Shown piece after piece: positions 38,022 to 61,313 of a stretch of 64,000 bases of DNA (the stretch's first letter is position 1; each line of letters starts with the position of its first letter). The position numbers were made by a program, and so were the translations under genes. Origin of the DNA: Amphritea sp. (lineage in GTDB: Bacteria > Pseudomonadota > Gammaproteobacteria > Pseudomonadales > Balneatricaceae); NCBI RefSeq assembly GCF_050300915.1, contig NZ_JBNKYN010000017.1:312-64311 (forward strand). The letters are read 5' to 3'. The notes beneath the pieces are model-generated. The model saw only the letters and a program-made list of their open reading frames with translations, had not been told where the DNA came from and ran no database searches.

Positions 38022-38112
38022 AGAACGTCACTGCGTGACTCGCTAGACGCGGCTTCGCCGCTTGCTGGTGGCTAGAAAAAGATTAAACAAGCCACTATAG
38101 GTTAGCAAGCGC
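38022..38112 (+). repeat. CTAG-linked mini-hairpin repeat, forward arm plus truncated reverse arm
   Basis: GTCAC-TGC-GTGAC and GCGGC-TTC-GCCGC hairpins, TGGCTAG-AAAAAG; about 53 bp nearly identical to 61261-61313. Confidence 0.85.
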
Positions 38113-40650: not shown

Positions 40651-40695
40651 ACTTCGCCGCTGGCTAGTGGCTAGTGGCTAGTGGCTAGAAAAAGC
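40651..40695 (+). repeat. CTAG repeat family: (TGGCTAG)x4 heptamer run ending in GCTAGAAAAAGC
   Basis: ACTTCGCCGC-TGGCTAG TGGCTAG TGGCTAG TGGCTAG-AAAAAGC. Confidence 0.85.
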
Positions 40696-52651: not shown

Positions 52652-52952
52652 GCTAGAACGGAAGCTTCGCTTCCTGCTAGTAGTTAGACGCAACTGCGTT
52701 GCTTGCTAGAAAAAGCAAAGATTAAGAGCAATAGCACGGAGTGGCTTTAATCTTTTTCCAGCAAGCGCAGCGTTCTAACCACTAGCAAGTCACGCAGTGA
52801 CGTCTAGAACGGAAGCTTCGCTTCCTGCTAGTAGTTGCGTTGCTCGCTAGAAAAAGCAAAGATTAAGAGCAATAGCACGGAGTGGCTTTGATCTTTTTCT
52901 AGCAAGCGCAGCGTTCTAACCACTAGCAAGTCACGCAGTGACGTCTAGCTAG
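52652..52952. repeat. Two tandem copies (151 and 141 bp) of the complete CTAG-hairpin element
   Basis: Units begin CTAGAACGGAAGCTTCGCTTCCTGCTAG at 52653 and 52804; both carry the same core AAAAAGCAAAGATTAAGAGCAATAGCACGGAGTGGCTTT. Confidence 0.92.
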
Positions 52953-56931: not shown

Positions 56932-57366
56932 ATGAGCCAAGCTGATTTCTATGTTCTCCCCGACGCCGACCCGGAAAGCCGTACCGCCTTCCTCTGTCGC
57001 CTGGCGGATAAGGTGTTGGGCCACGGCCTCAACGCCTATATCCACGTCACCGGAGCCAGCGAGGCCGAACGGCTGGATCAGTTATTGTGGGATTATCGCG
57101 CCGACGCCTTTATCCCCCACGGCCTGCTCAACAGCAAACCCGACGCCCCGGTGCAGATCGGCTGGGGCGATCAGCTGCCACAACACCGCGATGTCTTCAT
57201 CAACCTGGCCCTGGACGCCACAGAGGAAACCCTGAAATTTGATCGTATTCTGGAGATCGTTATCCAGCAACCCGACATCCTCACCGCCACCCGTAAAAAC
57301 TACGCCCTCTACAAAAGCAACGGCATCACCCCGAAGATGCATGATATGCGTAAGAGCAGTAGCTAG
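56932..57366 (+). CDS. holC: DNA polymerase III chi subunit
   Basis: ADFYVL, LDQLLW...FIPH; synteny pepA-holC-valS. Confidence 0.92.
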   Translation: MSQADFYVLPDADPESRTAFLCRLADKVLGHGLNAYIHVTGASEAERLDQLLWDYRADAFIPHGLLNSKPDAPVQIGWGDQLPQHRDVFINLALDATEETLKFDRILEIVIQQPDILTATRKNYALYKSNGITPKMHDMRKSSS

Positions 57367-57628
57367 ACGTCACTACGTGACTTGTTAGACGCTCCTTCGT
57401 CGCTTGCTAGTCGCTAGAACAAGCATTTTAGTCCACTAGAATCAATATTCTTCTCTTGATCTTCGCTTTTCCTAGCAAGCGACGCAGTCGCGTCTAACTC
57501 CTAGCAGGAAACGAAGTTTCCGTTCTAGCCACTCTCGCGTTTTTTTGCGAGTACCTAACTACTAGCAAGTGCGAAGCACGTCTAGCTTCTGCGCGTCATA
57601 ACGTAGTTTGCCAGCAGCTAGAAAATGC
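57361..57628. repeat. CTAG-hairpin array downstream of the four-helix-bundle gene
   Basis: Forward modules 57361-57420, reverse modules 57469-57587 (direct repeat of 58172-58289), extra GCTAGAAAATGC at 57617. Confidence 0.9.
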
Positions 57629-57636
57629 AACAACGC

Positions 57637-57978
57637 TCAGGGCTCCGTTGATTTAATCAGTGTGGCCAGCATTTTCTGAATCTCATCCAGCTCCTTTCTC
57701 CAGTCACAGCCTCGCTCCGTATGGATGTAACCAATTCGCTGACCGATATAAACCTGGGTTTTCAGCTCAGCGAGCGAACCCTTGGCATAGTAGAGAAATT
57801 GCCGTTTCTCCTTGAGTGATCCCCGCTCAAACCCCTCAGCGATATTACTGGGTATCGACAAACTACTGCGGGTTATCTGATCCCTGAAACCAAAATCCCG
57901 GCAGCGGGAAAGAACGGTATACACCTCACAACTCAATCGACAAGCACGCTTCCATACATCCAGGTCTTCATAACTCAT
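57637..57978 (-). CDS. Four-helix-bundle protein (23S rRNA IVP family, Avd-like fold)
   Basis: EDLDVW, RDQITRSSLSIPSNIAEG, AKGSLAELKTQ family motifs; 113 aa. Confidence 0.92.
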   Translation of the reverse strand: MSYEDLDVWKRACRLSCEVYTVLSRCRDFGFRDQITRSSLSIPSNIAEGFERGSLKEKRQFLYYAKGSLAELKTQVYIGQRIGYIHTERGCDWRKELDEIQKMLATLIKSTEP

Positions 57979-58064
57979 AACAAATTCCTTTTCGTCATTT
58001 CTGAAAATTAGTCTAGTTCAAAAAAAACGCAGTTCACAATGGCAGCCCCATTCGGGAATAAGTT

Positions 58065-58290
58065 GCTAGAACGGAAACTTCGTTTCCTGCTAGACGCTAG
58101 AACGCTGCGCTTGCTAGAAAAAGATAAAACCCACACCCGGCCAATTCACCAGAAGCTTTTAGTCTTAGCTCTTCCTAGCAAGCGACGCAGTCGCGTCTAA
58201 CCACTAGCAGGAAACGAAGTTTCCGTTCTAGCCACTCTCGCATTTTTTGCGAGTACCTAACCACTAGCAAGTGCGAAGCACGTCTAGCTA
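58065..58290. repeat. CTAG-hairpin array upstream of the four-helix-bundle gene
   Basis: Forward modules 58065-58123, reverse modules 58172-58289. Confidence 0.9.
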
Positions 58291-58363
58291 CTTAAGCCCC
58301 CCGGCGCTATAATATGCGACTATTTTTCTGCCCTAATTCAAGCGTTGAGAGCACGGTTATTTA

Positions 58364-61225
58364 ATGGATACCACTTACCAGCCACACGAGATCGAGAAAT
58401 CCTGGTACAAAATCTGGGAAGAGAAAGGTTACTTTGCCCCCTCCGGTGAAGGCGAGGCCTACAGCATTATGATCCCGCCGCCGAATGTCACCGGCAGCCT
58501 GCATATGGGTCATGCTTTCCAGCACACCATCATGGATGCGCTGATCCGTTATCAGCGAATGAAGGGTAAAAACACCCTGTGGCAGGTCGGTACCGACCAC
58601 GCCGGTATCGCCACCCAGATGGTGGTTGAACGTAAGCTGGCCGCCGAAGAGCAGAAAACCCGTCATGACCTCGGCCGTGATGCCTTTATCGAGAAGATCT
58701 GGGAGTGGAAAGGTGAATCCGGGGGCATGATCACCAACCAGATGCGCCGTCTGGGCGATTCGGTTGACTGGCCGACCGAGCGTTTCACCATGGATTCCGG
58801 CTTCTACAACGCCGTGCAGGAAGTGTTTATCCGTCTGTATGACGAAGGCCTGATCTACCGTGGCAAGCGTCTGGTTAACTGGGACCCGAAACTACACACC
58901 GCGATCTCCGATCTGGAAGTGGAAAACCGCGAAGTGAAAGGCAAAATGTGGTATCTGCGCTACCCGCTGGCGGATGGTGTCAAAACCGCCGCCGGAGATG
59001 ACTTTCTGGTGGTCGGTACCACCCGTCCGGAAACCCTGCTGGGGGATACCGGCGTCGCCGTGAACGCCGAAGATGATCGTTATAAAGATCTTATCGGCAA
59101 AGCGGTTATCCTGCCGCTGGTTGGCCGGCGCATTCCGATTGTGGCCGATGAGCACGCCGACATGGAAAAAGGCTCCGGTTGTGTGAAAATCACTCCGGCC
59201 CACGACTTCAACGATAATGAAGTGGGTAAGCGTTGCAAGCTGCCGATGATCAACATTCTCACCCTCAACGGCGATATCCGCGATGAGGCCGAGACCTTCA
59301 ACACCGATGGCAGCGAAAACCACGAGATCGACAAAACCCTGCCGGAGAAATACCGTGGCATGGAGCGTTTCGCCGCCCGTCGCGAGATCGTTGCCGATAT
59401 GGACGCCGCCGGGCTGCTGGTGAAGATCGAAGAAAACGATATGACCATCCCCTACGGTGACCGTGGCGGTGTAGTGATCGAACCGATGCTCACCGATCAG
59501 TGGTTTGCCGATGCCAAAACCCTCTCCGGCCCTGCCGTTGAAGCAGTTGAGAACGGTGATATCAAGTTCGTACCGAAGCAGTACGAGAACATGTTCTTCG
59601 CCTGGATGCGCGACATTCAGGACTGGTGTATCTCCCGTCAGCTGTGGTGGGGCCACCGGATTCCGGCATTCTACGATAACGAAGGCAATGTCTACGTTGC
59701 CAAAGATGCCGACGCTGCGCGGGAAAAATATGGTCTGGATCTGCAAACCGAACTGCGTCAGGACGATGACGTCCTCGATACCTGGTTCAGCTCTGGTCTG
59801 TGGACCTTCGGCACCCTGGGCTGGCCGGAAAACACCCAGCGTCTGCAAACGTTCCACCCGACCGATGTGCTGGTCACCGGCTTCGATATCATCTTCTTCT
59901 GGGTTGCGCGGATGATGATGATGACCATGCACCTGATCAAAGATGAAAACGACAAGCCGCAGGTACCGTTCAAAACCGTTTACGTCACCGGTCTGATCCG
60001 TGATGAAAACGGCGACAAGATGTCCAAATCCAAGGGCAACGTGCTTGATCCGCTGGATATGATTGATGGCATCAGCCTGCCAGAGCTGCTGGAAAAACGT
60101 ACCGGCAACATGATGCAGCCACAACTGGCGGAGAAGATCGCCGCGCGGACCGAAAAGCAGTTCCCGGAAGGTATCGCGGCCCACGGCACCGACGCCCTGC
60201 GCTTCACCCTGGCGGCGCTGGCCTCCACCGGCCGCGACATCAACTGGGATGTGAAGCGTCTGGAGGGTTACCGTAACTTCTGTAACAAACTCTGGAACGC
60301 TGCCCGTTATGTGCAGATGAACACCGAGGGTGAAGACTGCGGCCAGCTCTCCGCAGAGAGCGAAGTTGAGCTTTCACTGGCCGATCGCTGGATCGCCAGT
60401 GAACTACAGAAAGTTGAAGCACAGGTCACCAGGCATCTGGACGAATATCGCTTCGATCTGGCATCTCAGACCCTGTATGACTTCATCTGGAACGAATACT
60501 GTGGCTGGTATCTGGAGCTGTCCAAACCGGTATTGTGGGACGAAAACGCCTCCGCTGCCGCCAAGCGTGGCACCCGCCGCACCCTGGTACGGGCACTGGA
60601 AGTGATCCTGCGACTGACCCACCCGATCATGCCTTATATCACCGAAGAGATCTGGCAGTCGATTAAAGGTCTGGCCGGTGTCAAAGGCGACACCATCATG
60701 CTGCAACCCTACCCGGTTGCCAATGAAGCGAAACATGATGCCGCCGCTGAAGCCGATATCAACTGGCTGAAAGGTGTTATCACCGGCGTCCGTAACATCC
60801 GTGGCGAGATGGGCATCTCACCCGCCAAAGGTCTGGATATCCTGATCAAAAACGGCAGCGCCGACGATAAAACCCGTCTGGACGCCAACAAAGCCTTCCT
60901 CGCTAAACTCGCTTCACTGGCTTCCGTCACCTGGCTGAACCCGGGCGATGAAGAACCGATGTCAGCGGTACAGCTGGTCGGCGATATGCAGGTTCTGGTA
61001 CCGATGGCCGGCCTGATCGACAAAGACGCCGAACTGGCCCGTCTGAAGAAAGAGATGGATAAGCTGGAGAAAGAAGCCGGACGTCTGGCAGGCAAACTGA
61101 GCAATGACAAATTTGTCGCTAATGCGCCGGAGGCGGTTGTTGCTAAAGAGCGGGAGAAGCTGGCGGAGTATAAGGCGTCGTTGGGGCAGCTGAAAGAACA
61201 GGCGGCTAAGATAGAGGCGCTTTAG
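58364..61225 (+). CDS. valS: Valine--tRNA ligase
   Basis: [34 protein letters not shown]-terminal coiled coil. Confidence 0.98.
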
Positions 61226-61237
61226 CAACAGCAACAG

Positions 61238-61313
61238 TGGCTAGAACGTCGCTTCGCTCCTCGCTAGACGCGGCTTCGCCGCTTGCTAGTAGCTAGAAAA
61301 AACGTTAACAAGC
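61238..61313 (+). repeat. CTAG-hairpin forward arm immediately after the valS stop
   Basis: TGGCTAG-AACGTCGCTTCGC...GCTAG-ACGCGGCTTCGCCGCTTGCTAG-TAGCTAG-AAAAAACG. Confidence 0.87.

Follow-up and report, generated by a model that had tools for sequence, protein, structure and literature searches.

A probable intervening-sequence-like cassette between holC and valS of Amphritea: a four-helix-bundle gene bracketed by inverted mini-hairpin arrays

Background

The intervening sequences (IVSs) of 23S rRNA carry terminal inverted repeats that form a stem with an open reading frame (ORF) in its loop and are cut by RNase III, and in Coxiella short tandem 7-nt repeats lie next to the IVS ORF (Warrier et al. 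2016, PMC4990558). Dispersed intergenic heptameric tandem repeats, often arranged as convergent inverted pairs, have been described in Xanthomonas and Nostoc (Rehm et al. 2015, PMC4692102). We analysed a 64,000-nt stretch of DNA from Amphritea sp. (contig NZ_JBNKYN010000017.1, hereafter the window, to which coordinates refer) in which a gene for a predicted four-helix-bundle protein lies on the minus strand between holC and valS, among arrays of short hairpins. This segment is probably a resident IVS-like cassette of the PF05635/TIGR02436 type, antisense between its two neighbours and bracketed by inverted mini-hairpin arms.

For 30 years the IVSs of 23S rRNA have remained a curiosity in want of an explanation, and PF05635 proteins are, to our knowledge, among the commonest bacterial proteins without a known function. 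The Avd protein, to which the product of the present gene can be compared in fold, binds nucleic acid together with a reverse transcriptase (RT).

Results

The encoded protein

The ORF at 57637-57978 encodes a protein of 113 amino acids with an isoelectric point of 8.7. It matches PF05635 with 116 bits (cut-off 33.8, E 1e-33), TIGR02436 with 113 bits (cut-off 24) and NF008912 with 170 bits (cut-off 124, E 2e-50), profile matches that place it in the PF05635/TIGR02436 (23S rRNA IVP, S23p) four-helix-bundle family. An AlphaFold2 model of the monomer (mean predicted local distance difference test score, pLDDT, 97) contains helices at residues 7-25, 29-51, 55-82 and 87-109, and Foldseek comparison of the model gave template modelling (TM) scores of 0.92 to 2GSC, 0.84 to 2RLD and 0.79 to Avd (4DWL). 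2GSC, deposited with five chains, is also matched by sequence. The IVP family and the Avd-like fold proposed in the original prediction are thus borne out. None of the PADLOC defence-system models matched, and a diversity-generating retroelement context was rejected: the locus has no RT and no template or variable repeats, RVT_1 hits being confined to other contigs.

We compared the locus among 23 Amphritea species genomes, referred to below by G numbers, with synteny determined by tblastn. The ratio of nonsynonymous to synonymous substitution rates (dN/dS) of the IVP gene is 0.01-0.07 among nine species, with dS reaching about 1, and Amphritea atlantica DSM 18887 has a protein of 100 % identity. 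These sequence comparisons indicate strong purifying selection on the gene, which in turn argues that the protein is functional.

Inverted arms around the gene

The arms bracketing the gene lie 104 nt from its stop codon and 83 nt from its start, and consist of CTAG-linked mini-hairpins with invariant C-GNA-G or C-TNC-G triloops instead of plain 7-nt repeats. When the minus-strand RNA from 58125 to 57455 was folded, 58062-58123 paired with 57460-57533 in both the minimum free energy and the centroid structures, giving a stem of about 60 bp round the ORF with a fold energy of -254 kcal/mol against -204 kcal/mol for shuffled sequences (z = -5.9). The arms are therefore predicted to be able to close a stem of about 60 bp enclosing the ORF. 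A 28-nt hairpin (CTAGCAGGAAACGAAGTTTCCGTTCTAG) occurs exactly three times at the locus, once inverted (58066-58093), and this inverted copy has 41-nt, 90 % complementary pairings with 58196-58236, across the leader of the gene, and with 57493-57533, across the whole gene; the first of these agrees with the original suggestion of pairing across the leader. ORF-enclosing pairs exceeded those of shuffled flanks in the genome under study, G008 and a Neptuniibacter homologue, and comparable enclosing stems are predicted in most relatives, at a second IVP paralogue of G008, in Neptuniibacter and in G026.

To look beyond the genus we used 80 loci from many phyla whose proteins are 43-71 % identical to the IVP protein. 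Comparison of each left flank with the reverse complement of the right flank scored above the 99th percentile of a mismatched null at 32 of 69 loci, and inverted arms scoring at least 15 were present at 37 of 58 distant IVP loci as against 1 of 223 same-locus offset controls (P = 7e-26). These arms are mostly tandem 7-nt repeats (CAAGGTT, CAGTTGT, AGACGTT, CGAGCTA and others) situated 0-150 nt from the ends of the ORF. The Neptuniibacter homologue has the Amphritea design, being bracketed by inverted arms of TNC/GNA hairpins split by CTAGAG. Judged from sequence, the same inverted-arm arrangement thus surrounds homologous genes in many phyla; our literature search found no paper connecting PF05635 genes outside rRNA with flanking repeats. 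One locus from another family of the order (L032, G026:C7) holds a 42 %-identical IVP gene between ahcY and metK, bracketed by the inverted repeat CGGGAGACGG..ACGCAAAAGCG / CGCTTTTGCGT..CCGTCTCCCG. Transfer of a whole cassette between phyla (L134 versus L120) was not borne out, the two being 83 % identical over 1.7 kb and hence one lineage.

Layout of the holC-valS spacer

The spacer occupies 57367-58363 (997 nt) and is the biggest CTAG cluster of the whole 4.57-Mb assembly, in keeping with its earlier description as the densest array site. holC (DNA polymerase III chi; 56932-57366, plus strand; PF04364, E 9e-34) runs directly into it: the last four codons and TAG stop (57352-57366, AAGAGCAGTAGCTAG; AAG AGC AGT AGC TAG) are at the same time the terminal motif of the adjoining hairpin array. 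The motif, AAGAGCAGTxG-CTAG, is found again at many array starts, and in IVP-free relatives holC ends with different residues. The holC 3′ array (A-type, plus strand, 57363-57417) has two mini-hairpins with C-TNC-G triloops on the plus strand and CTAG/TTAG linkers. It is followed by a spacer, X1, between convergent arrays (57418-57471, ending GCTTTTC), which is replaced by a different spacer in G013 (58 % identity over 57420-57479), and then by a four-module B-type array with C-GNA-G triloops on the plus strand (57472-57585), which lies on the 3′ side of the IVP gene and supplies one arm of the predicted stem. Since arrays follow both holC (plus) and the IVP gene (minus), the left-hand composite 57363-57585 is the meeting of two 3′ arrays belonging to convergent genes.

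The 3′ tail of the IVP gene (57586-57636, minus strand), which includes a degenerate module ending CTAGAAAATGC, and the leader (57979-58065, minus strand) are each single copy in the genome. The leader, conserved in G013, G022, G008, G005 and G016, contains the Shine-Dalgarno sequence AAGGA and a weak candidate promoter, TTGTGA-N18-TAGACT, which is a reading of conserved sequence, a consensus promoter scan of the leader having found none. Upstream lies an A-type array of a GGAAAC hairpin and a short hairpin (58066-58117, plus strand), the 5′-side arm, inverted relative to 57472-57585. There follow a second spacer, X2 (58118-58174; AAAAAGATAAAACCC...GCTCTTC), in whose minus strand there is a weak hairpin resembling a terminator, and another four-module B-type array (58175-58287, plus strand), which abuts the valS promoter (TATAAT at 58308-58313). 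valS itself (58364-61225, plus strand), assigned by tblastn synteny in relatives, is divergent from the IVP gene. An Rfam scan of the whole window at the gathering threshold matched no rRNA and no other family.

The two B-type arrays belong to direct repeats of about 131-138 nt (57453-57590 and 58156-58292, about 94 % identical) that flank the ORF on the opposite strand, as had been noted originally. A repeat search reported them as two collinear segments, 57453-57545 versus 58156-58248 (93 nt, 91 %) and 57541-57590 versus 58243-58292 (50 nt, 96 %), which meet at a T7/T6 run differing by one base in length, while blastn gave a single alignment of 131 nt at 93.9 %.

The locus across Amphritea

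The IVP gene lies directly upstream of and divergent from valS in at least 13 of the 23 species; three of those with a valS-adjacent gene (G010, G007 and G003) have holC 2-6 kb away. In seven gene-free species the holC-valS gap is 240-310 nt, against 997 nt here, so that the gene does split an otherwise compact junction as proposed. None of these seven spacers contains an array or a one-repeat scar.

The flanks vary between species. Only in the genome under study, G013 and G022 do direct repeats box the gene, and these three share cassette tracts of 97-100 % identity; the repeat is present in three copies in G022 and reaches about 175 nt in G013. In G016 and G021 there are just two hairpins, in 81 nt on one side of the gene (3′), and in G014 arrays totalling 841 nt flank it. 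Plain heptamers flank the alleles of G010, G006 and G017, the flank in G017 being a different repeat type built on CGAGCAA. That allele (L045, G017:C2) is preceded by four tandem units of about 130 nt, each of CGAGCAA heptamers and a GTCAC hairpin, and in G006 (L040/L051, G006:C164) a tandem pair of IVP genes, one of them cut short at residue 85, precedes valS, with (CGAGCCA)n heptamers on its flanks.

Divergence of the cassette is out of step with that of its neighbours. Between the genome under study and G013, dS is 0.013 for the IVP gene as against 0.38 for holC, 0.33 for pepA and 0.17 for valS, and for G022 it is 0.027 as against about 0.4 for holC and about 0.2 for valS. The reverse holds for G017, whose IVP gene is only 75 % identical in nucleotide sequence although holC, pepA and valS are close. 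The high-identity tract shared with G013 starts in the left arm at about 57480 and continues into valS as far as about 58500, and the direct repeats are not its limits. These comparisons show exchange or replacement of the cassette tract between species at a fixed site.

A dispersed family of mini-hairpins

In the assembly that contains the window (G000; 4.57 Mb, 275 contigs, GC content 50.8 %) CTAG is about 8-fold under-represented (2144 occurrences, expectation about 17850). The tetranucleotide nevertheless serves as the invariant linker of a repeat family, and the assembly has some 82 tight CTAG clusters. The module reads CTAG-C(A/G)AG-[4-7-nt stem ending C]-GNA-[stem′]-CGT(T)-CTAG; its stems vary freely between copies (GTCAC, GCGAC, GGAAAC, GCGGC and others), the triloop and linkers being constant. 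With a strict pattern 93 modules are found, and with a hairpin-based search 201 in 118 arrays, 106 of which are unidirectional; about 2 % of spacers contain an array. Where an array abuts the stop codon of a long ORF, its C-TNC-G loops are nearly always in the sense strand (61 of 64 arrays, 95 % in one orientation). Across the genome this orientation puts the d(C-GNA-G) hairpins, which are very stable, on the template strand; examples in the window lie at 38027, 40664, 52653-52949 and 61241-61293. Amphritea also has (CGAGCAA)n, (CGCCACT)n and (CTAGTGG)n arrays, and at 40664-40685 a perfect (CTAGTGG)x3-4 heptamer tandem ending CTAGAAAAAGC connects the CTAG linkers with 7-nt periodic repeats.

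The unit of the direct repeats, a multi-module sequence of about 100-175 nt, recurs by blastn without an IVP gene on contigs C52 (three copies, up to 95 %), C47 and C17. The copies on C52 (27722-27823, 30274-30361 and 32343-32438) are spaced about 2.4 kb apart beside repeated GCGAGAG(T/A)(C/G)G-CTAG hairpins. Because the flanks vary among species and the unit occurs elsewhere without the gene, the direct repeats are secondary: they are two copies of a dispersed multi-module unit and not an insertion or excision boundary. They would have arisen by local duplication or conversion in one lineage; one copy is the array behind the 3′ end of the gene, and the other is situated between the 5′ arm and the valS promoter.

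Association of the gene with the repeats

All three distinct Amphritea IVP loci, namely the valS-linked gene, a cysNC-linked paralogue and a divergent gene of G011, sit in arrays. CTAG modules are abundant only together with the valS-linked gene (9-106 copies in 13 genomes, 0-3 in eight IVP-free genomes), and (CGAGCMA)n arrays occur in 14 of 14 genomes with this gene and in none of nine without it, a comparison for which reading the repeat backwards is no valid control, since reversal turns the heptamer into one of its own rotations. G010 and G007, which have the gene with almost no CTAG modules, each contain about 170 overlapping hits of (CGCCACT)n at many sites; they are exactly the species whose allele this heptamer flanks, and in other Amphritea it is all but missing. 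In G010 there are, in addition, 20 copies of an IS200-type Y1 transposase.

Modules cluster near the gene within single genomes. Excluding the cassette, nine lie within 15 kb on either side in the genome under study against 0.5 expected; G014 has 19 against 0.7, and G008, G003 and G017 have 5-6 against 0.4-0.8. The species are not independent in this comparison, as the neighbourhoods are syntenic among them. In G014 and G008 a second flavour, the TCGGAC module, is concentrated round the second paralogue, which has no CTAG modules about it, and the converse holds at the valS-linked gene. The site of this paralogue lies between cysNC and a gene resembling mannose-1-phosphate guanylyltransferase; in G022 TCGGAC-type modules are still found 1-4 kb off. 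At L140 (G022:C17:24082-25152) there are a REP-associated tyrosine transposase (RAYT) gene, named for repetitive extragenic palindromes (REPs), and an assembly gap where G014 and G008 hold the second paralogue.

Several observations weigh against a link between protein and repeats. The gene-less arrays retain nothing of the ends of the gene; the genus-wide co-occurrence fits one gain on one branch of a species tree based on 293 residues; G010 and G007 carry the gene with hardly any CTAG modules; and TCGGAC modules occur without the matching paralogue in G022 (11), G013 (8), G009 (5) and also G011. Strict dependence of TCGGAC modules on the second paralogue was rejected on account of these four genomes. 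A partnership between protein and repeats is therefore plausible but unproven, its co-occurrence being confounded by phylogeny, and we consider it less likely than not.

Discussion

We favour, as the probable account of this locus, an IVS-like cassette resident between holC and valS. Its arms would pair on a transcript or on single-stranded DNA covering both, looping the gene out much as in the 23S rRNA intervening sequences that RNase III cuts; the dispersed arrays would act as 3′-end RNA or DNA hairpins, and the basic, Avd-like protein probably binds the repeats. Several observations weigh against this account. The dispersed arrays are mostly unidirectional (106 of the 118) rather than inverted pairs, and none retains the IVP leader or tail; with leader and tail both single copy, we rejected the idea that gene-less arrays are simple deletion derivatives of the cassette. 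The arms are not 7-nt periodic, as they are at most homologous loci, but are made of hairpin modules of 22-31 nt in which only the linkers are heptamer-like (CTAGCAA, CTAACCA, CTAGTGG), and each module folds on itself, in competition with long-range pairing. The enclosing stem is not predicted in G016 or for the G020 paralogue, and the count of enclosing pairs is noisy, shuffled flanks reaching up to 75 pairs. Finally, the candidate promoter lies inside the loop, which would leave the IVP mRNA without the 5′ arm; if it is the sole promoter, the stem would be relevant only on read-through transcripts or on single-stranded DNA.

Proximity of gene and repeats could also be fortuitous, the CTAG mini-hairpins being ordinary 3′-untranslated-region repeats, like REPs and bacterial interspersed mosaic elements (BIMEs), that settle in permissive spacers, and the protein having nothing to do with them. 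The arrays do follow stop codons in one orientation as 3′-end elements would, most are unidirectional and distant from the gene, and the genus-wide co-occurrence in a single clade, the TCGGAC modules without a paralogue and the scarcity of CTAG modules in G010 and G007 are all as such a coincidence would have it. Against it, the three Amphritea loci and that of Neptuniibacter all lie within arrays although so small a share of spacers has one, clustering is specific to flavour round each paralogue within one genome, G010 and G007 have instead the CGCCACT heptamer that flanks their own allele, and the inverted-arm signal spans phyla. We regard coincidence as unlikely, if by no means negligible. 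Somewhat less probable again, in our estimate, is a trans-acting partnership. The IVP protein would on this view form an oligomer resembling Avd, would recognise the modules of its own arms as hairpins of single-stranded DNA or RNA, and would seed or maintain copies that lack the gene, by preference close by; each allele or paralogue would make a cognate pair with one repeat flavour. Such pairs may be the CTAG hairpins with the valS-linked gene, the TCGGAC modules with the cysNC-linked paralogue and the CGCCACT heptamers with the G010/G007 allele. The association of the gene family with structured repeats that was proposed at the outset is real and not random: embedding in arrays, clustering and the inverted arms at 37 of 58 distant loci support it. 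A correlation with array copy number exists and coincides with phylogeny.

The proposal that the direct repeats are the ends of a cassette which comes and goes by recombination between the two, perhaps by way of a circle, is largely refuted and in our judgement very unlikely. The repeats are long and 94 % identical, which makes RecA-dependent deletion physically possible, and the unusual likeness of the tract in the genome under study, G013 and G022 suggests recent exchange; yet the high-identity tract continues past the repeats into valS, at least 13 species retain the gene at this position, where flanking direct repeats differ greatly or are lacking, repeats box it in only three alleles, and their unit is dispersed elsewhere. 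The empty holC-valS alleles retaining one repeat that this proposal envisaged were not found in any relative, the seven gene-free species included. Mobilisation of the arrays as REPs by a RAYT, a Y1 transposase, with the four-helix-bundle gene as a bystander, seems to us the least credible explanation and scarcely probable. Amphritea relatives do encode a RAYT of 152-155 amino acids, but its flanks there carry a classical GTAG REP doublet of another kind (TGTAGGAGCGGCGTCCCGCCGCGAT...), it is absent from CTAG-rich genomes (the genome under study and G003; G016 has no clear RAYT), and the two Y1-like ORFs of the genome under study have no arrays within 400 nt. Loci with both RAYT and GTAG REPs are L139 (G014:C1:3026827-3027138), L141, L142 and L140, and the assembly of the window lacks both.

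The resident IVS-like cassette, if correctly read, presents the "ORF inside a stem" design outside rRNA, with the gene under selection and with arm modules at about 120 sites in strict orientation. As Amphritea atlantica DSM 18887 is culturable and has the identical protein, the link between protein and repeats is directly testable. Were it true, it would provide a transposase-free route to REP-like and heptamer repeat families, would also explain lineage-specific families of heptamers and mini-hairpins, and would give a function to a protein family unexplained since the 1990s; should it fail, the locus is no more than a conserved orphan gene lying in a spacer rich in repeats.

Comparison with known systems

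Among described elements the locus most resembles the ORF-bearing IVSs of Coxiella burnetii and Leptospira, with which it shares the S23p/IVP family, an ORF in the loop of an inverted-repeat stem (here predicted) and a size of about 0.45-0.65 kb. It differs from them in lying not in 23S rRNA but antisense between two protein genes, in having arms that are arrays of self-folding mini-hairpins, and in the large gene-less family dispersed in the Amphritea genome; the ORF is moreover under strong purifying selection, whereas that of Coxiella is decaying. With Avd (4DWL, 8UB7) the protein has in common the four-helix-bundle fold (TM 0.77-0.79) and its small, basic character, but it falls well below the Avd profiles NF033474 (24.2 bits, cut-off 80) and PF22296 (16 bits, cut-off 40). 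As in REPs, BIMEs and REPINs (REP doublets forming hairpins), the repeats are short extragenic palindromes in mosaic arrays of alternating orientation, found at gene 3′ ends in about 100 copies. Unlike the REP/REPIN-RAYT systems they have no GTAG motif and no associated RAYT, and unlike REPs and BIMEs their stems vary freely round a fixed triloop and CTAG linkers, with a 95 % orientation bias. Dispersed 7-nt arrays are shared with Xanthomonas and Nostoc, but the units here are hairpin modules and not G-rich heptamers, and the account of those genomes draws no link to four-helix-bundle genes (PMC4692102). From the heptamer-armed IVP cassettes of other bacteria the locus is set apart by its CTAG-linked hairpin arms, its antisense position to both neighbours and a single site that is stable for the whole clade. 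rRNA IVSs and REP-like repeats are thus known kinds, and what is new here is an IVS-like cassette whose arms are drawn from a genus-specific, oriented and dispersed family of mini-hairpins.

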